This document shows positions 2 through 8,091 of a stretch of DNA of 9,482 nt, in pieces. The stretch's first letter is position 1. Each line of letters starts with the position of its first letter. The DNA comes from a virus (Duplodnaviria > Heunggongvirae > Uroviricota > Caudoviricetes), in the IMG/VR virus record IMGVR_UViG_3300039377_000120. One strand, given 5' to 3'. The position numbers and the translations under genes are program-made. Below the pieces are notes generated by a model. The model saw only the letters and a list, made by a program, of their open reading frames with translations. It was not told the DNA's origin and did not search any database.

Positions 2-1528
2 AGCGCGGCGGCTGCTTCTGCCACTGCATCAGCTAACAGTCAAAAAGCAGCAAAAACCAGTGAAACCAACGCAAAGGCGAGCGAGACTGCGGCGGCGAAC
101 TCGGCGCAAGCATCGGCAGCAAGCCAGACAGCAGCTAAAGCAAGTGAAGACGCAGCCAGAGAGTATGCAAGCCAGGCAGCGGAGCCGTATAAACAAGTTT
201 TGCAGCCGTTGCCCGATGTGTGGATACCGTTTAATGATTCACTGGATATGATTACGGGCTTTTCGCCATCATATAAAAAAATTGTTATTGGCGACGATGA
301 AATAACAATGCCTGGCGACAAGATTGTAAAGTTTAAACGCGCATCGAAAGCAACTTACATTAATAAATCTGGTGTGCTGACAGAGGCTGCCATTGACGAG
401 CCACGATTTAAACGTGATGGCCTGCTTATTGAGGGGCAAAGAACTAACCTGCTAATCAATTCAACAAATCCGACTAAATGGAACAAGTCGTCAAATATGA
501 TCTTAAGTGCATCAGGTGTAGATGATTTCGGATTCCAGTACGCAAAATTTACATTAAAACCAGAAATGGTAGGGCAAATTTCAGCGATTAACATAGTAAC
601 CGTTTCCGGCAGTAAAGGTTTTGATGTAACAGGCGGAGAAAAGTATGTAACCATATCATGCAGGGTGCAAAGTGGCACTCCAAATTTAAGATGCCGATTA
701 CGATTTGAAAACTATGATGGTTCTACCTACACATTCTTAGGTGACGCTTACTTAAATACGACAGATTTATCTATTGATAAGACGGGTGGTGCCGCTAATC
801 GCATTACTGCAAGGGCTGTTAAAGATGAAGCAAGCAAATGGATCTTTTTTGAGGCGACAATTAAGGCACTTGATACAGAAAATATGATAGGTGGAATGGT
901 TCAGTATGCCCCGGCAAAAGGAGTGGGCACTGGCGCGGATGATTATATTTATATTGCGACCCCTCAAGTTGAAGGTGGGGCATGCGCTTCATCGTTTATT
1001 ATAACAGGCGCATCCCCTGTAACACGCGCCAGCGATATTGTAACGGTCCCCATTTCTCTAAATTGGTGCAATCCCGCTATTAGTTCATTAGCAGAAGTTA
1101 ATACCAATTGGGATGAATCGCCAAACAAAGAAGGTAGCGCACGTATTCTTAATATTTCCACTACGGGAGATACAACTGAAATTGCAGATGAAAGTTATAT
1201 GTATTTGGGGTATACATCTTTGGGAGCACGCGCAATCATTACAAATGGTAAAGGCACTAAAATAGAATATAAAAGCGTTATAGAACGACCAGAGAGAAAA
1301 AGCATTATCGGCTTTAGATTCACAGAAAGTCGAGAATTGTGTGTTGTGGTTAACGGTAATATTGGTGCTAAGGTAGTTTCTCCTTATAAAAAACACAAAT
1401 ATACAGGAGGCTTCATTAATATTGGTGGTCAATCATCATCCGGCAACCGTCACCTATTTGGACACGTTCGAAATCTGCGTATTTGGCACAAGGCATTGAC
1501 TGATGCTCAGATGGGGGAGTCAATCTAA
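2..1528 (+). CDS. stf: Side tail fibre protein, 5'-truncated by window edge; C-terminal region with a LamG/concanavalin-like motif
   Basis: Frame 2 is open from nt 2 with no stop; the supplied ORF at 200 begins at an internal TTG. The N-terminal part translates to an Ala/Ser/Thr-rich repeat (…KTSETNAKASETAAANSAQASAASQTAAKASEDAAREYASQAA…) typical of lambdoid Stf shafts. The C-terminus (…GNRHLFGHVRNLRIWHKALTDAQM) resembles the closing strand motif of LamG/ConA-like jelly-roll domains. Stop TAA at 1526-1528. Confidence 0.8.
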   Translation, partial: SAAAASATASANSQKAAKTSETNAKASETAAANSAQASAASQTAAKASEDAAREYASQAAEPYKQVLQPLPDVWIPFNDSLDMITGFSPSYKKIVIGDDEITMPGDKIVKFKRASKATYINKSGVLTEAAIDEPRFKRDGLLIEGQRTNLLINSTNPTKWNKSSNMILSASGVDDFGFQYAKFTLKPEMVGQISAINIVTVSGSKGFDVTGGEKYVTISCRVQSGTPNLRCRLRFENYDGSTYTFLGDAYLNTTDLSIDKTGGAANRITARAVKDEASKWIFFEATIKALDTENMIGGMVQYAPAKGVGTGADDYIYIATPQVEGGACASSFIITGASPVTRASDIVTVPISLNWCNPAISSLAEVNTNWDESPNKEGSARILNISTTGDTTEIADESYMYLGYTSLGARAIITNGKGTKIEYKSVIERPERKSIIGFRFTESRELCVVVNGNIGAKVVSPYKKHKYTGGFINIGGQSSSGNRHLFGHVRNLRIWHKALTDAQMGESI

Positions 1529-1809
1529 TGAAAGATTTAACACTCAAATTTGCCGACAGGGCCGACTTTTCGGCCTTTATGGGAAGTATTGGCTATTATA
1601 ATGACGAGTCGATGCAGGATGATATTCTGATTGATGTGATAGGTAACGTGTACAAAGAAACCGGAGAGCTGACTGAAGATGGCGAACCGGTATGTGTTAA
1701 GGAAGATGGATATTTTGTAAACGTGCGCATTATTAAGGATATGCAAATATCGTCATTATTCGATGAATACGCGGTTGCTGTTGAGCATCAACTTCGTGGC
1801 TGGATGTGA
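1528..1809 (+). CDS. Hypothetical acidic 93-aa protein, translationally coupled to the tail fibre gene
   Basis: ATG at 1528 overlaps the stf stop (TAATG); GGGGGAG Shine-Dalgarno at 1514-1520. Occupies the position where a Tfa tail-fibre assembly chaperone is normally found, but I see no resemblance to Tfa. Confidence 0.55.
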   Translation: MKDLTLKFADRADFSAFMGSIGYYNDESMQDDILIDVIGNVYKETGELTEDGEPVCVKEDGYFVNVRIIKDMQISSLFDEYAVAVEHQLRGWM

Positions 1810-1818
1810 GGTAGAGAA

Positions 1819-2523
1819 ATGGCTACATCAACAGTAATTCCGGGAGACATCACCACGCTGAAGGGAGATGTTAGTAAAGCAAAGGAAGATATTTCCTCTA
1901 TTAACGGAAAAGTATCAACGCTTCAGACTGATATGGCCAGTGCAAAGCAGGATATCAGCACCAGATACACAAAAACTGAAGTTGATAATAAGCTGAAAAA
2001 CAAAGTGGAAGTGAACGATCTGGAAAGTGGTCGTTATGGCGGAGATTTTTACCCGCTGACTGGCCGTGAAGCGTTTTATTTATGGGGATTGGGCACAACT
2101 ACAGCGGCGGCAAATCTTTATCTTAATCCTGACCCTGCAATTTCGTCTGTGCTGCGGTCAACATCGTCTATCCGCTATAAACATTCAGTAGAGACGATAG
2201 ATTCAGAGCACGCCGATCTCATTTTCAGGATGCGCCCTGTGTGGTACAGGTCGCAATGCGAAAATGACAGGCGTGACTGGGGATTCTATGGATTGATTGC
2301 CGAGGAAGTTGGAGAAATTGCCCCTCAGTTTGTTCACTGGCGACCAGCCAACGAAGATGATGCACCGGAAACCATTTCCAGCAATGGCCTTGTTGCCGAA
2401 GGTGTAATGTACGAACGTCTGGTTGTTCCACTGATTCACCATATCCAGAAGCTGACTGAAAGAGTTGATGAACTTGAGTCAGAATTAAAGTTGTTATCCG
2501 TTTCCCGAAGCGATATCGGATAA
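1819..2523 (+). CDS. Tail-fibre-like protein with C-terminal peptidase S74 (endosialidase-type intramolecular chaperone) domain
   Basis: GAGG Shine-Dalgarno at 1808-1811, ATG at 1819. N-terminal coiled-coil-like segment, then S116-S-I-R-Y-K121 (the S-x-x-R-x-K dyad spacing of the autoproteolytic site), then …LIFRMRPVWY…GFYGLIAEEVGEIAPQFV…GLVAEGVMYERLVVPLIHHIQKLTERVDELESELK, which matches the S74 chaperone pattern including the C-terminal coiled coil. Confidence 0.75.
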   Translation: MATSTVIPGDITTLKGDVSKAKEDISSINGKVSTLQTDMASAKQDISTRYTKTEVDNKLKNKVEVNDLESGRYGGDFYPLTGREAFYLWGLGTTTAAANLYLNPDPAISSVLRSTSSIRYKHSVETIDSEHADLIFRMRPVWYRSQCENDRRDWGFYGLIAEEVGEIAPQFVHWRPANEDDAPETISSNGLVAEGVMYERLVVPLIHHIQKLTERVDELESELKLLSVSRSDIG

Positions 2524-2533
2524 AGGAGGCGTA

Positions 2534-2827
2534 ATGGATATAACACCTTTCCTTCATGCACTTTGTGCTGTGGCTGCGCAGGTACTGGTTGGTCTTTTTA
2601 CCGGAAACTGGGCTTACGGGGCGATAGCTGGTTGTACGTTCTTCATTGCGCGTGAACATACCCAGGCAGAATATCGCTGGATTGAAATGTTCGGGCATGG
2701 CAAGCGTATGAATATGCCGTGGTGGGGTGGTTTTGATCCGCGCGTGTGGGATGTGGCAAGCCTGATGGATTTTTCTGTGCCGGTGGTGGCTTGTCTGCTG
2801 GTCTGGCTGTTGGTTAATCGTGGGTGA
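2534..2827 (+). CDS. Small hydrophobic protein, 97 aa, predicted 2-3 transmembrane segments
   Basis: AGGAGG Shine-Dalgarno at 2524-2529 directly after the upstream stop; ATG at 2534. Hydrophobic stretches at the N-terminus (LHALCAVAAQVLVGLF) and C-terminus (FSVPVVACLLVWLLV). Last gene of the + strand cluster. Confidence 0.55.
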   Translation: MDITPFLHALCAVAAQVLVGLFTGNWAYGAIAGCTFFIAREHTQAEYRWIEMFGHGKRMNMPWWGGFDPRVWDVASLMDFSVPVVACLLVWLLVNRG

Positions 2828-3005
2828 AAAAGGGAGTTGTAAACGCAACACAGGAAGAGGTGCCGCTTCAGGTTGCTGGGAATAAGCGCCGGGGTCTGTT
2901 AAATCATGCCAATACGCTAATCGAGCCAGATATTGAGTAGCCTGCAGTCCGTCATGGCGTAATCGTTTTGTGATATGCTGCACGCCGTATGCAAGGAGCA
3001 TGATT

Positions 3006-3027
3006 GCGCTCGACTGGCGAGCGCTCG
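3006..3027. repeat. Nested GC-rich palindromes (gcgctcg-actgg-cgagcgc, and cgagcgctcg) flanked by an 8-bp direct repeat atgattgc at 3000-3007 and 3044-3051
   Basis: Read directly from the sequence. 7-bp stem with 5-nt loop, no adjacent T-tract. Lies in non-coding DNA after the prophage gene cluster. Confidence 0.4.
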
Positions 3028-3292
3028 ATAGTGCTACTATTGAATGATTGCTAGTCTAGGCGGATTGTACTTAAGTAATATGACGGTTCAAGGCGTTTAA
3101 TCTGAAACCAGCCACATATTAGCCTTTTCAAACATTTCCTGAACACTCAGGCTTACCTGCTCTTTCTCGTGCTTGCGCTGGCATTTGTGTTGAGCGCCGG
3201 TGAATACTCTTACTCAACACTCCCAGAATTATATCTGTTGCATCAGGCAGACCATCAAAATTCTTTTGTCATAAACGAGTTCCACGAATAAT

Positions 3293-3311
3293 GTGCCCTA
3301 TGGTAGGGCAC
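3293..3311. repeat. Perfect 8-bp inverted repeat gtgcccta-tgg-tagggcac (hairpin or dimeric protein-binding site)
   Basis: Exact reverse complement arms with a 3-nt spacer. Sits 64 nt downstream of the stop of the AT-rich gene on the - strand; no U-tract on either strand, so not a canonical intrinsic terminator. Confidence 0.4.
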
Positions 3312-3374
3312 TATTGATATGAATGAGTAGCTAAAAAGATTTTTCGTTATGTATTAATGTATCTGTCACTTATT

Positions 3375-4169
3375 TTATAGTAAAGATGATATGCCAGCAA
3401 GAAATGGAGTAAATACTGTAATGTGTGCAGATACATTATTAATAAAGTCCTTATATGCTTCTTTAAAACAGCCGCTTTGGTGACTGGCTGCCAGTGCCTG
3501 TACATTATCTATAAGGTGTGATTCTGTCGCGCCATCAAAGTTTTTCGATTTTATTGCCTCAATCATTTCATTAAATATTGTGGGCTCATTATAATTTGTC
3601 GTAGTAGTTGCCGTAGCACCTGAAGAATGTATATTGATACTAGAACCGGAAATTCCACTGACATGAATATTAGCTTCTTGTTTCATAAGAGGTAAACCAT
3701 TCTCCATCTTGTATAGGTCACTATCTTGTAGCATCTGCAATGTGATACGTACTGCTGCTAATAGTTGTTCTTGCTTTTTGAATAAGGAACACATCTGTTC
3801 TACAGACCAAAGCTGAACTGCATTTTCTTCGCATGTTTTTTTAGCTATATTTGGCACTTTCGAATCATAATTACCATAAACCCAAGTGTCCTTGAATCTT
3901 TCGATAATAGCTGTCAACGTTGGAAATTTACTGAAATCACTATTAATGGATAGTAACTCATCAGACATATAAAGTGCCATATCTCTGCCTTCCGCATATA
4001 CTGCTTCCACTTTATTCCGTGTTGCAAATGGTATTCTTGAAATAAAACGAAAATCCTCTTCATTTTTTAAATGGACCCAGTCTTTATCAAAACGGCTAAA
4101 TTCGTACCCTATCGATAACAGTCTACTTATATATTGGGCTACTGATTCCAAATCTTTTCTTATGTCCAA
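3375..4169 (-). CDS. Hypothetical AT-rich orphan protein (about 264 aa; maximal ORF 271 aa to 4190); candidate prophage moron or anti-phage/abortive-infection gene
   Basis: Long uninterrupted - strand ORF; stop TAA at 3375-3377. The only plausible start is TTG at 4167-4169, preceded by AGGAG (4177-4181, 7-nt spacer); the TTG at 4190 has no Shine-Dalgarno. No in-frame ATG until about residue 70. GC content is visibly lower than the flanking sit and phage genes. Contains a Ser/Thr-rich low-complexity linker (HVSGISGSSINIHSSGATATTTT) and a hydrophobic C-terminus. Confidence 0.6.
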   Translation of the reverse strand: MDIRKDLESVAQYISRLLSIGYEFSRFDKDWVHLKNEEDFRFISRIPFATRNKVEAVYAEGRDMALYMSDELLSINSDFSKFPTLTAIIERFKDTWVYGNYDSKVPNIAKKTCEENAVQLWSVEQMCSLFKKQEQLLAAVRITLQMLQDSDLYKMENGLPLMKQEANIHVSGISGSSINIHSSGATATTTTNYNEPTIFNEMIEAIKSKNFDGATESHLIDNVQALAASHQSGCFKEAYKDFINNVSAHITVFTPFLAGISSLL

Positions 4170-4641
4170 AGTATTACTCCTGCTTGTCAACCGAATCTGT
4201 CGGTTTTCTTACAAATGGCTTGTCTTTAAAGTTCTGATTAAAAAGACGCTAACCAATACTTAATAATACATGAAAAAAAAGCGCATAAGCTGGCTTTTTT
4301 ATCAATCGGGAACTGCGGCCCCTTTGCGTATCCTTTTTTGTTTCTTCACCGTCTGGTCGGTGTTCTGCTGAGACTGCTAATTTCCTGTTTTTGCTAGTGC
4401 TGTCTTGGCACTGTCCATCGTGATTGGTGGACTGGTGAAGTTGAAACCGCAGACACGTCGTATGCAAGAACGTGCTGCGGCTGGCTGGTGAACTTCCGAT
4501 AGTGCGAGTATTGAATGATTTACAGCCGTTATTGATTTTACATATTTTTTGTATGAAAGGATTAGCGCCTCCTCCCAACGTCCGCCCATGACTTTCTGGA
4601 CTGCAGTGTACTAGCGGACAATGCTGCCCTCGGATGTTGTG

Positions 4642-5499
4642 CTAATTGGGGGATAACAGATCCTGTCTATGAGCGTTTCCCTTTGTGCGTGCGTTGAAAC
4701 TGATAACGGTAAACGTCATGATGAACACAACCGCGAATAAGACGACAATCGTCGGAGCTGGTGCGCTGTCGATAAAAAAGGACAGCCAAACACCAGTCAT
4801 TGAGACTATTACCGATATGCCAGTCGCCAGTAGGAGTGCAATATGAAAGCGTTGTGTCAGGAGTACCGCAATGGCGCCAGGCGCAATGAGCAGAGAAATG
4901 GAGAGAATGATACCTACTGCTTTCAGCGTCGCCACAATGGTCAGGGAAACCATGCACAGCAGCCCATAATGCAGCCATCGCGTATGCAAACCGCTTACCT
5001 GCGCCTGTTGATAATCAAAGCTGAACAGCAAAAAATCCCGCCATTTTACGCTAATAACAAGTGTAACCAGCCCGGCAATAATCATCGTCTGGATTATATC
5101 GCCGATGGTTACCCCGAGCATGTCGCCGAAAAGAATATGGTCAAGATGTATGTCTGGTTTGACTGCAATATACAAGATCAGACCTGCGGCAAACATGCCA
5201 GAAAAAACAATCCCCATCACTGTATCTTGCTTGATTCGGCTGTTGTCTTTCAGGTATCCCGTCGCCACCGCGCAGAATACTCCGGCGATAAATGCCCCTG
5301 TAGCCAGAGGTAACCCCAGAATCCAGGCAAGCACGATGCCAGGAAAAACCGCATGACTCATCGCGTCACCCATCAGTGCCCAACCTTTCAGGACCAGAAA
5401 GACCGACAGCAGCGCACAGGGTATGGAAACTACCAGTGAAATCAGCAGTGCGTGACTCATAAAGGTGAACTGCAGTGGCTCCAGTAATAATGCCATCAT
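4642..5499 (-). CDS. sitD: Mn2+/Fe2+ ABC transporter permease SitD (ABC-3 family)
   Basis: 285-aa polytopic membrane protein, paralogous to the upstream permease; start overlaps the sitC stop by 4 nt (ATGA); fourth gene of the binding-protein/ATPase/permease/permease operon. Confidence 0.88.
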   Translation of the reverse strand: MMALLLEPLQFTFMSHALLISLVVSIPCALLSVFLVLKGWALMGDAMSHAVFPGIVLAWILGLPLATGAFIAGVFCAVATGYLKDNSRIKQDTVMGIVFSGMFAAGLILYIAVKPDIHLDHILFGDMLGVTIGDIIQTMIIAGLVTLVISVKWRDFLLFSFDYQQAQVSGLHTRWLHYGLLCMVSLTIVATLKAVGIILSISLLIAPGAIAVLLTQRFHIALLLATGISVIVSMTGVWLSFFIDSAPAPTIVVLFAVVFIMTFTVISFNARTKGNAHRQDLLSPN

Positions 5500-6353
5500 G
5501 AGCGATCCTCCAGCGCTTTATGCGCACGCCGACGATTTGCCAAAAGCCCATGGGTGGGCGCAAATACAAATGCTAAAAGAAACAGCAGTGTCTGCGCCAC
5601 CACGATGATTCCACCTGTCGCGCCGTCCAGAAAGTAACTGACCCACGCGCCGAGGAAACTGGTTACACTGCCAATAGTTACAGCAATTATGAGCAGGCGG
5701 GGAAAACGATCGGTTAACAACCATGCTGTTGCACCGGGAGTCACCACCAGACAGATCACCAGAAAGGCACCAACCGTTTGCAGCGCCGCAACGGTCGAAA
5801 CCGACAGCAGGGTGAAGAAGAGGATTTTTAATCTGCCCGGATGCAATCCAATAGCACGGGCGTGATTCTCGTCGAAAAAGGTCACCATAAGATCTTTCCA
5901 TTTGAAAAAAAGCACGATGATCGAGAGAATGCCAATGATAGTGAGTTGCAGGATATCCGCCGGATCGATTGCCAGAATATTGCCCAGGACGATGGTCTGA
6001 ATGTTCACGGATGTCGGGTTCAATGACACCATAAACAGCCCCAGGCCAAAAAAGGAGGAGAAGATCAGGCCGATGATGGCATCTTCTTTTAAGCGAGTGC
6101 GTTGGTTAAGAAACAGCATGCTGCCCGCTGCCAGTCCGCCGGAAAAGAAGGCTCCCAGAGAAAACGGAAGCCCCAGCATATATGCCCCCGCAACACCCGG
6201 GACAATAGAGTGCGACAGCGCATCGCCAATCAGCGACCAGCCTTTTAGCATCAGATAGCATGACAGGAAAGCGCAGAGACCGCCGACCATCGCCGAGACC
6301 CACATCGCATTGAGCATATATTCATAGCTGAAGGGTTCCAGTAGCACGTTCAT
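5496..6353 (-). CDS. sitC: Mn2+/Fe2+ ABC transporter permease SitC (ABC-3 family)
   Basis: 285-aa hydrophobic protein with multiple transmembrane segments; start overlaps the sitB stop by 4 nt; same size and architecture as SitD. Confidence 0.88.
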
Positions 6354-7177
6354 CTTGCTTCCCTCTGCACCGCTGACGGTCGATGTGCCACAAAAGGGTG
6401 TTCATCGTCAGTAATAATGCTTTCTTCCGAGGCGTTAAGTGTGACATGGCGCAGTACGCCGCTAAAAGCCAGCTCCAGGTTCTCGGCTGTAAAAGTGGTG
6501 TCTGTCGGCCCGCTTGCCAGGACGGTGCCTTTGACCATGACCGTATAATCGCAAAATGTCGTGACTGAGCCGAGATTGTGCGTTGAGACAAGCATCGTCT
6601 TGCCTTCCGCGCGTAACTCCCTCAACAGGCTGATGATTTTCGCTTCGGTTTTCACATCAACGCCGGTAAAAGGTTCATCCAGCAGGATCACATCACCCTG
6701 CTGTGCAATCGCTCTCGCCAGAAAGACGCGTTTCTTTTGTCCACCGGAAAGCTCGCCGATTTGTCGATGGCGAAAATCCACCATATCGACACGTTCCAGC
6801 GCATCGGTGACAATCTGACGATCCCTCTTTTTGGCTATACGCAACATACCCATGTGCCCATAGCGGCCCATCATCACCACATCTTCCACTAGTACAGGAA
6901 ATGACCAGTCAACCTCTTCTGACTGAGGGACGTAGGCAACCAGGTTTTTCTGTAGCGCCTGTCGCGTGGGAATACCCAGAACAGATATCTTTCCGCTGGT
7001 CAGACGCACAAATCCCATAATCGCTTTAAACAACGTCGATTTTCCGGAACCGTTTACCCCAACCAGAGCGGCAATAGATCCACTTGGTACTGTGAAGGAT
7101 GCATCGCGCAGTGCTGTGTGCCCGTTACGCCAGGTGACAGTAACATCATTAACGACAATGCCCGCAGATTGCATCAT
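6350..7177 (-). CDS. sitB: Mn2+/Fe2+ ABC transporter ATP-binding protein SitB
   Basis: Walker A (GVNGSGKST), ABC signature (LSGGQKKR) and Walker B (ILLDEP) are all present in the translation; start ATG overlaps the sitA stop by 1 nt (TAATG). Confidence 0.9.
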
Positions 7178-8091
7178 TATTTCTCCCTTTTCCCGGCTTT
7201 AATTCCCTGTACCAGCGTACTGGTAGTAACCTTCAGAAGGTCGATATACGTAGGTACCGGGCCGTTTTCTGTGCTCAGGGAATCGACATAGAGTACACCG
7301 CCGTAGTGCGCGCCGGTTTCACGCGCAACCTGACGCGCTGGTTTATCGGAAATCGTACTCTCGCTAAAGACTGCCGGGATATGATTTTTCTTCACCATAT
7401 CAACAACCTTACGTACCTGCTGCGGCGTGCCTTGTTGATCGGCATTAATCGGCCACAGATAAAGCTCTTTTAGCCCCAAATCGCGTGCGAGATAAGAAAA
7501 AGCCCCTTCACTGGTGACCATCCATCGCTGATTCTCAGGGAGTTCAGCAATCTGCTTACGCAGGGGGGCAAGGGTTTGGGTAATCTTGGCTTTATAAGTA
7601 TCGGCATTACGTTGGTAGGTTTGTGCATTTGCCGGATCGTATTTTATCAACGCATCACGAATATTATCGACGTAAATCAGAGCATTATCTGGCGACATCC
7701 AGGCATGGGGGTTAGGTTTGCCCTCATAGGGGCCTTCAGTGATCCCTACTGGCGTCACACCCGAAGAGACAATTACTTCTGGAACCCCATTAAGATGCTG
7801 GTAAAAGCGTTGGAACCACAATTCCAGATTCATACCATTGGCGAGAATCAGTTGTGCCTCCTGCGCACGTTTAATATCGCCAGGGGTAGGCTGATACTCA
7901 TGAATTTCTGCACCGGGCTTGGTTATGGATGAGACTTCTGCAGCATCTCCAGCCACGTTTTTGGCCATATCTGCGATGATGGTAAATGTTGTAATGACCT
8001 TGAATTTTTCAGTTGCACTCGCCTGAAATGCGATCGAGCAGGTGAGGGCGAGGCACCCCAAGAGCATGGTTACTTTTTTTATTGAGTACAT
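7177..8091 (-). CDS. sitA: Periplasmic Mn2+/Fe2+-binding protein SitA (TroA/ZnuA-like cluster 9 binding protein)
   Basis: N-terminal signal peptide ([18 protein letters not shown]); metal-ligand-like His motifs ([17 protein letters not shown]) typical of TroA-like binding proteins; first gene of the operon. Start could alternatively be the in-frame ATG at 8067. Confidence 0.88.

Follow-up and report, generated by a model that had tools for sequence, protein, structure and literature searches.

The stretch of DNA analysed here, 9,482 nucleotides (nt) from the IMG/VR virus record IMGVR_UViG_3300039377_000120 (Caudoviricetes) and referred to below as the window, covers the right-hand end of a lambdoid prophage, with the 3' end of its late operon, and continues into cargo and chromosomal genes. 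The side-tail-fibre gene stf is followed in the window by three small genes, for proteins of 93, 234 and 97 amino acids (aa), and by what is left of the tail fibre assembly gene tfa. The cassette formed by the three small genes is an ordinary one and probably the lambdoid, minimal form of a known kind of two-part lateral fibre. Its features and those that border it are:

2-1528, + strand: 3' part of stf, the putative proximal fibre; the frame is open from the start of the window
1528-1809, + strand: gene for the acidic 93-aa protein; an open reading frame (ORF) that overlaps stf by 1 nt and matches phrog_1361
1819-2523, + strand: gene for the 234-aa protein, a putative minimal distal fibre; match to PF13884 Peptidase_S74
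2534-2827, + strand: gene for the 97-aa membrane protein with three helices; hydropathy, AlphaFold2 model, phrog_1443
2845-2949, + strand: decayed 3' remnant of tfa with an in-frame stop; tblastn match to lambda Tfa

The coordinates of the three small ORFs were those given in a preliminary description of this DNA. The stop codon of stf (TAA, 1526-1528) and the start codon of the 93-aa gene (ATG, 1528-1530) have one base in common and read TAATG. Gaps of 9 nt and 10 nt precede the 234-aa and 97-aa genes, which have the Shine-Dalgarno sequences GAGG and AAGGAGG, respectively. Each of the three proteins had hundreds of homologues and a PHROG family of its own, so that the small ORFs are real genes and not chance ORFs. 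The three genes are probably co-transcribed with the late operon because of their tight spacing; weaker support came from a simple consensus scan, in itself weak evidence, which found no promoter-like or terminator-like sites on the + strand within the cassette.

The stf frame of the window (2-1528) was continuous with the full-length Stf, ~800 aa, of phages PhiR49_1 and Tritos. The part encoded in the window matched phrog_1419 'tail protein' (E = 9e-192), NF048003 GTA_spike_fiber (63.7 bits against a cut-off of 36) and Rcc01080 (PDB 6tb9), and contains a head-spike-fibre-like domain of the gene transfer agent (GTA) type. A C-terminal Laminin_G_3/ConA-like region was matched weakly, under the Pfam cut-off. 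At the other end, the Stf N-terminus of lambdoid relatives was PF08400, the prophage tail fibre N-terminal domain, and the N-terminal parts of the fibres varied by phage lineage. For the 442 residues of Stf encoded in the window, homology to lateral tail fibres from several lineages was full-length and took in the C-terminal ~440 residues of those fibres. Identities of this fibre head to that of the window were:

SECphi27 (T1-like): 61%
KarlJaspers (T1-like): 42%
VSe12 (T5-like): 68%
IrisVonRoten Gp22 (T5-like): 50%, E = 4e-154
VogelGryff (Seuratvirus): 51%
KarlBarth (Dhillonvirus): 45%
JeffSchatz (rV5-like myovirus): 36%

Within the window part of Stf, the first 80 and last 40 residues were conserved and residues ~300-400 (nt ~1100-1400) were hypervariable. 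This stretch had 9-21% conservation among six homologues and lies inside the lectin-like head, with well-conserved ends on either side. Hypervariability there fits the expectation for a receptor-binding head, and the stretch is probably the region of receptor contact. Stf of the window type had no recognisable chaperone of its own.

In two Escherichia coli relatives the NCBI pipeline marks stf as an incomplete pseudogene 'missing C-terminus' (locus L001, 5123-7126; locus L002, 5123-7123), the marked part corresponding to the window up to ~1126. The flag is probably an artefact, produced by annotation against a reference model without the lectin-head part, because the frame runs for ~800 codons and aligns end to end with the Stf of PhiR49_1 and Tritos.

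The 93-aa protein was acidic, with an isoelectric point (pI) of 4.2, and matched phrog_1361 (E = 4e-44). This family, of ~92 aa, always lies directly after this type of fibre head; in 181 phage records (tblastn), from at least six lineages, the start of its gene overlaps the fibre stop codon. An overlapping homologue followed the fibre gene in SECphi27, KarlJaspers, VSe12, IrisVonRoten, VogelGryff, KarlBarth and JeffSchatz. In the slot that usually belongs to Tfa, membership of the Tfa family was ruled out: Pfam gave no family for the 93-aa protein at E <= 1, Caudo_TAP was matched by none of 10 family members, and hhalign of the family profile against lambda Tfa gave a probability of 0.1%. The location of the gene, directly downstream of the fibre gene and coupled to it by overlapping stop and start codons in the window and in at least eight phage lineages, supports a Tfa-like job and not Tfa membership. 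A homologue accompanied the fibre head even in phages without the distal fibre (Lambda_2E9, JeffSchatz), which makes a partnership with the head likelier for the 93-aa protein than a connecting role between the two fibre parts. It is thus a candidate for a head-specific assembly factor, or for a fibre component, of a non-Tfa kind.

The C-terminal half of the 234-aa protein was an S74 domain. PF13884 Peptidase_S74 was matched by residues 116-172 over profile positions 1-57 of 58, with 27.2 bits against a gathering cut-off of 22. The serine and lysine five residues apart at the start of the domain (S116 and K121) were invariant in 22 aligned homologues, the divergent Tritos protein included. The same half matched the chaperone part of LtfA of phage DT57C, for which a solved chain exists (8hqz; E = 1.2e-7). 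The domain extends to the C-terminus, and the last ~30 residues gave weak coiled-coil matches (DivIC, XLF_CC) and aligned with the C-terminal helix of DT57C LtfA. The anatomy of the protein, from the N-terminus onward, was as follows:

Residues 1-16 (nt 1819-1866, + strand): putative docking motif, an N-terminal peptide common to larger distal fibres
Residues 10-51 (nt 1846-1971, + strand): six coiled-coil heptads, D-[IVM]-x-x-[LAI]-x-x, with a match to the P22 gp26 coiled coil
Residues 66-115 (nt 2014-2163, + strand): tip, homologous to the tips of longer fibres
Before S116 (nt 2164-2166, + strand): predicted self-cleavage site at the S74 Ser-Lys pair; K121 at nt 2179-2181
Residues 116-234 (+ strand): S74 intramolecular chaperone and C-terminal coiled coil (PF13884, 8hqz)

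The shaft motif YTKTEVD was present in the 234-aa protein and in LtfA. The tip (residues 66-115) and the chaperone domain were conserved jointly and were also found in longer tail-fibre proteins of E. coli. In phrog_3299 the protein matched the last 240 of 1,385 profile positions. Its reading as a frameshifted fragment of a longer fibre was ruled out, given that its size of ~225-235 aa, its start and its N-terminus were kept in plaque-forming phages, both virulent and temperate. From its sequence, the 234-aa protein is inferred to be a minimal distal fibre with a self-cleaving S74 chaperone, for which both trimerisation and autoproteolysis are predicted.

The number of heptads differed among homologues of this mini-fibre by whole repeat units (1846-1971 in the window and the equivalent stretch of the homologues). 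Fibre length therefore seems adjustable through the gain and loss of repeats.

On the chemistry and overlap of the 93-aa protein, its separateness from Tfa, and the nature of the 234-aa protein as a stand-alone S74 protein with S116 and K121 in place, the preliminary description was borne out. It had gone on to suggest that the 234-aa protein would leave only a small released fragment without a known role, and this did not hold: the part ahead of the cleavage site has the anatomy of a fibre, with the docking motif, the six heptads and the tip homologous to longer fibres.

In most of these phages a third gene lay directly after the ~92-aa gene, and its products begin with M(A/V)T.T.IP.DIT.LK. 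These varied in length (98, 225-235, 346, 388 or 574 aa) and in distal sequence, and the N-terminal IP.DIT.LK was kept throughout. The N-terminal peptides were:

Window (234 aa): MATSTVIPGDITTLKG
Tritos (346 aa): MATSTVIPDDIKTLKS
KarlJaspers (225 aa): MATVTNIPADITALKG
VogelGryff (388 aa): MAKTITNIPKDITNLKN
KarlBarth (98 aa): MVTKTNIPADITALKN
VSe12, and IrisVonRoten Gp24 (574 aa): MVTKTVIPTDITKLKN

Past this peptide the proteins diverged. IP.DIT.LK is read as a docking segment because such segments typically stay constant at the N-terminus while the distal parts attached to them are exchanged. In VSe12 the peptide MVTKTVIPTDITKLKN was encoded upstream of the annotated start of gp088 'tail fiber protein' (locus L016, ~3789-3900), and therefore either this start is probably wrong or the gene is interrupted.

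Judged from these comparisons, the first three genes (stf, the 93-aa gene and the 234-aa gene) form a conserved fibre module exchanged horizontally among lambdoid, T1-like and T5-like phages, Dhillonvirus and Seuratvirus, with the head and the ~92-aa partner also in rV5-like phages. Among 5,426 complete E. coli genomes searched with megablast, the cassette at 1528-2827 was present over at least 80% of its length in 723 (13%) and partly present in 1,913 (35%). The label 'non-canonical' in the preliminary description therefore had to be dropped: more than a tenth of the genomes have the complete cassette, and the module is common to several phage lineages. The cassette was also found in the isolated, plaque-forming lambdoid phages PhiR49_1 and Tritos and, with the middle gene missing, in Lambda_2E9. 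Its configurations in the lambdoid phages were:

93 + 234 + 97: window and PhiR49_1
93 + 346 + 97: Tritos; the middle protein has only its first 32 residues in common with that of the window and ends in an S74 domain
92 + 97, middle gene absent: Lambda_2E9; sitDCBA is next

The middle gene is swapped between the 93-aa gene and a right-hand border. The 97-aa gene and the tfa remnant, conserved at the right end of the module, make up this border, and the remnant marks where the incoming module recombined. The remnant begins 17 nt past the 97-aa gene. In tblastn, 2845-2949 matched residues 156-190 of lambda Tfa with 19 of 35 residues identical (E = 2e-5), and a TAG stop replaced a Trp codon. For the same stretch in the E. 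coli relatives, NCBI gives an incomplete tail fiber assembly protein, and homology between these relatives and the window extended past the beginning of the remnant, as far as 2858 or 2982. The remnant at the border of the 97-aa gene, and the reach of the relatives' homology into it, indicate that the module replaced an older locus. This would have been an ancestral lambdoid stf-tfa(-pin) locus in which the 3' part of stf and most of tfa gave way to the incoming module.

The gene pin was absent from the window and followed the cassette in Tritos and in E. coli AF14; no inverted repeats of at least 14 nt flanked the cassette in the window. With neither pin nor flanking inverted repeats, an invertible segment of the Pin/Gin type was ruled out for the window. 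The earlier statement that the cassette has no Tfa and no Pin accordingly stands as far as intact copies in the window are concerned, and needs amending for the tfa remnant and for the pin genes of Tritos and AF14.

The 97-aa protein had strong hydrophobic stretches at residues ~5-24 and 76-95 and a weaker one at 25-40. Its AlphaFold2 model contained helices at 4-23, 26-53 and 74-96, with a mean predicted local distance difference test score (pLDDT) of 92.5. The protein matched phrog_1443 (E = 7e-59). Its central segment, AREHTQAEYRWI..FG.GKR.NMPWWGGFD, was near-invariant from Escherichia to Aeromonas, Leclercia and Comamonas. The protein matched no family of Pfam, NCBIfam or PADLOC, and a Pfam scan of 50 homologues gave none in common. 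Foldseek of the model against viral models returned nothing at E <= 0.001, the sole related match being a 42-aa fragment of phage anhysbys.

The family formed 331 clusters at 50% identity (HMMER scan). The 150 representatives listed were all stand-alone proteins of 50-146 aa, with no domain fusions among them. Members were found at 70 genome loci in alpha-, beta- and gamma-proteobacteria and Desulfovibrio. A homologue lay after GpJ in a Comamonas prophage, overlapped the stop of tfa in Halomonas phage phiHAP-1, and, in Cobetia phage Carin-5, followed an S74 tailspike. Of 10 genome loci sampled, 4 had the homologue after a tail fibre or tailspike, and 2 of these 4 had the fibre-head family of the window. 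The gene was absent from the T1-like and T5-like copies of the module. As had been proposed from the sequence, the 97-aa protein is a small membrane protein; it is an inner-membrane protein of an unnamed family that is frequent at the 3' end of tail-fibre clusters. With low confidence, we suggest an action at the cell envelope for the benefit of the phage, for example in exclusion or in the protection of progeny.

Chromosomal homologues of the 97-aa protein were observed in Aeromonas rivipollensis, between pirin and RIO1 kinase genes (locus L008, 6001-6309), and in a sphingomonad and a Pseudomonadota metagenome-assembled genome, directly after ligA, the gene for NAD-dependent DNA ligase (loci L083 and L085).

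Three further candidates were rejected for the 97-aa gene and protein. A holin would be a small membrane protein with a charged C-terminal tail, encoded beside an endolysin; the 97-aa protein has three helices, but its chain ends 2-3 residues past the last one, and no lysis gene is adjacent in the window; Phage_holin_8 was matched weakly by one of 50 family members (E = 0.04). A lipoprotein of the Cor/Llp type was set aside in view of the missing lipobox: C11 is preceded by H-A-L, and its position was unconserved in the family. A moron with its own promoter or terminator found no match in a simple consensus scan, which is weak evidence.

Four known systems are close to the cassette. For the Tequintavirus IrisVonRoten (Bas32), the BASEL authors have modelled a T-shaped Gp24 with an intramolecular chaperone, by AlphaFold-Multimer, on a long proximal fibre whose C-terminus bears a protruding galectin-like domain (PMC11990801). 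The order and spacing of its genes are the same as in the window. The C-terminal 434 aa of Gp22 (363-796) were 50% identical to the window Stf over 455 columns (E = 4e-154), and Gp23 was 38% identical to the 93-aa protein (E = 1e-23). Gp24 begins with MVTKTVIPTDITKLKN, compared with MATSTVIPGDITTLKG in the window, and was 27% identical over the C-terminal 144 columns, the S74 chaperone. The two systems differ in the attachment domain, which is of the T5 type in IrisVonRoten and of the lambda Stf type in the window (PF08400 in relatives). They also differ in the distal fibre, of 574 aa in IrisVonRoten and 234 aa in the window, where two large receptor-binding domains are missing, and in the 97-aa membrane-protein gene that follows in the window.

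The same trio of genes was found in Drexlerviridae of the Tempevirinae (KarlJaspers bas06_0035-0037, SECphi27 gp79-81). Their S74 proteins, of 225-235 aa, were 59-61% identical to that of the window over the full length, and their fibre heads 42-61%. These phages are virulent, have another N-terminal fibre anchor, and lack the 97-aa gene, the tfa remnant and the cargo genes. DT57C, with its branched lateral tail fibres LtfA and LtfB, is the established precedent (PMC10713586; PDB 8hqz). There too a second fibre protein is borne by the first, and the 234-aa protein has matches to LtfA in the chaperone domain and in the TKTEVD repeats of the shaft. Both DT57C fibres are long, however, the similarity is confined to the chaperone domain and the repeats, and a ~92-aa partner gene is not listed in PMC10713586 (the DT57C locus itself was not inspected).

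With the stf-tfa(-pin) loci of lambda, Rac and e14, the cassette has in common the slot after J and lom and, in its relatives, the N-terminal Stf domain; the tfa 3' remnant of the window, and the pin gene after the cassette in Tritos and E. coli AF14, belong to the same pattern. In the window, however, distal Stf is of another fold family, with the lectin-like head, the unrelated 93-aa protein replaces Tfa, and there is no invertible segment.

The explanation that fits best overall, and one that we consider probable with some reserve, is a lambdoid two-part fibre module in which a minimal distal fibre is provided by the 234-aa protein and a non-Tfa partner for the head by the 93-aa protein. 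Stf would be the proximal fibre, a lambda-type N-terminal attachment domain fused to a distal part of ~440 aa with the hypervariable lectin-like head. The 234-aa protein would trimerise via its C-terminal S74 intramolecular chaperone and cleave itself before S116, to give a trimer of 115-residue chains of 12.4 kDa each. The N-terminal peptide of this trimer may dock it to the Stf shaft end, beside the lectin-like heads, an arrangement proposed in line with the published AlphaFold-Multimer model of IrisVonRoten Gp24 on Gp22 (PMC11990801). Such an assembly would offer two binding sites on one fibre. The 93-aa protein would most likely aid the folding or assembly of the lectin-head fibre, in the place that Tfa has beside classical Stf; alternatively, it may stay bound to the fibre.

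Several points weigh against this explanation. Docking on Stf is taken from a published model of homologues, and in a mature fragment of 115 residues there is little space for a receptor-binding domain. Literature searches gave no experiment or virion proteome that places the 234-aa or the 93-aa protein in particles, and nothing direct on the virion proteomics or function of these two proteins or of the 97-aa protein. The AlphaFold2 model of the 93-aa protein had a pLDDT of 47, from a shallow alignment of 38 sequences that were 82-96% identical, and was too poor to define the fold or to separate a chaperone from a structural subunit. A purely phage-specific role of the 97-aa protein is disfavoured by the family members found on chromosomes beside ligA or pirin. 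The BASEL authors, moreover, label the Drexlerviridae homologue of the 234-aa protein 'putative lateral tail fiber chaperone' in GenBank, which means that they considered a role in trans. The 234-aa protein would then be an assembly chaperone that helps Stf to trimerise and is never part of the virion, and both its small size and the lack of an S74 domain, Tfa or other recognisable chaperone in Stf itself would agree with this. Phages of the Lambda_2E9 type and JeffSchatz, however, have a homologous head and ~92-aa partner, yet no S74 protein of this kind, and the corresponding proteins of Tritos, VogelGryff and IrisVonRoten, encoded in the same slot and with the same N-terminal motif, have 346-574 aa and complete receptor-binding parts. 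In work on K1F endosialidase and T5 pb1, S74 chaperones reportedly act in cis on the sequence just before them. The conservation of residues 66-115, just before S74, along with the S74 domain fits such action in cis, and a chaperone in trans is regarded as rather unlikely.

A far less probable alternative, which we hardly credit, is that the cassette is prophage debris, with the 234-aa ORF the truncated 3' end of a longer fibre and the small ORFs non-functional leftovers of recombination. It would agree with the match to only the end of phrog_3299, with the tfa remnant, which attests to recombination at the locus, and with the pseudogene mark that NCBI gives to the neighbouring stf in relatives. 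The conservation data contradict it. Virulent, plaque-forming Drexlerviridae, at 57-62% identity, and inducible lambdoid phages, at 92-97%, have retained the size of 225-235 aa together with the start codon, the Shine-Dalgarno sequence and the N-terminal motif. Each of the three small genes is conserved at the protein level, and the continuous stf frame of ~800 codons in the relatives makes the pseudogene flag a probable artefact. For the 97-aa protein taken separately, the alternative is a superinfection-exclusion or receptor-masking factor that guards the lysogen or the infected cell from phages with the same fibre, as the preliminary description had supposed. Cor, Llp and seroconversion genes occupy the same end-of-cluster position in other phages. 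The 97-aa gene is likewise the last gene of its tail-fibre cluster, and phages and prophages unrelated to one another (Comamonas, Chelativorans, Leclercia, Desulfovibrio, phiHAP-1, Carin-5) have a homologue immediately behind a tail fibre or tailspike gene; the virulent T1-like and T5-like phages carry the module without it. Its central loop, however, is near-invariant from E. coli to Aeromonas and Comamonas, unlike factors that track variable receptors, and members occur in purely chromosomal settings (with ligA in sphingomonads, with pirin and RIO1 in Aeromonas). The location 10 nt after a late gene, with no own promoter detected, suggests late rather than lysogenic expression, and the protein has no lipobox and no similarity to known exclusion proteins or PADLOC models. 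An exclusion or masking role is accordingly conceivable but doubtful.

Downstream of the fibre module, on the - strand, the window contained a low-GC ORF of 271 aa (3375-4190), sitDCBA (4642-8091) and uspF. In E. coli FDAARGOS_1268, uspF and ompN flank the same junction. The stretch of the 271-aa ORF had a guanine-plus-cytosine (GC) content of 0.35, and no family in Pfam, PHROG or NCBIfam matched the ORF, whose one PADLOC match was weak (PDC-M14B, E = 0.0017). Relative to FDAARGOS_1268, the ORF and its flanks (~2983-4600) are an insertion between the tfa remnant and sitD. A different locus of E. coli AF14, with the annotation 'hypothetical protein' and 'DinI family protein', matched positions 2950-4640 at 100% identity. 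The operon sitDCBA, for an iron/manganese transporter, lies just past the fibre module. In the isolated phage Lambda_2E9 it comes directly after the 97-aa gene (locus L005, 5399-8848), and this metal-uptake operon is therefore cargo of functional lambdoid phages.

A broader reading takes the 93-aa and 97-aa proteins together, as two unnamed families that are new functional classes tied to glycan-binding fibres, and adds the 115-residue mini-fibre to them. It is put forward tentatively, and we think it less probable than its opposite. If it held, the ~92-aa family would be a universal non-Tfa assembly factor for the lectin-head fibres of siphoviruses and myoviruses, and the 97-aa family would be a new inner-membrane factor that is placed after fibre genes and acts on a conserved envelope process. 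The mini-fibre of 115 residues could be among the smallest tail-fibre units that still need an S74 chaperone.

None of these findings makes the window itself unusual. The module is present, at least in part, in about one third of complete E. coli genomes, with its genes labelled 'hypothetical' or 'tail fiber domain-containing' and stf wrongly labelled 'pseudogene'. To recognise the unit for what it is, a fibre with a lectin-like head, a ~92-aa partner and an exchangeable distal fibre with a fixed docking peptide, would correct these labels. The conserved docking peptide and its flanks look like natural swap points for the re-targeting of lambdoid particles. Once worked out, the roles of the 93-aa and 97-aa proteins would give a second type of side-tail-fibre chaperone and possibly a new kind of phage membrane factor.

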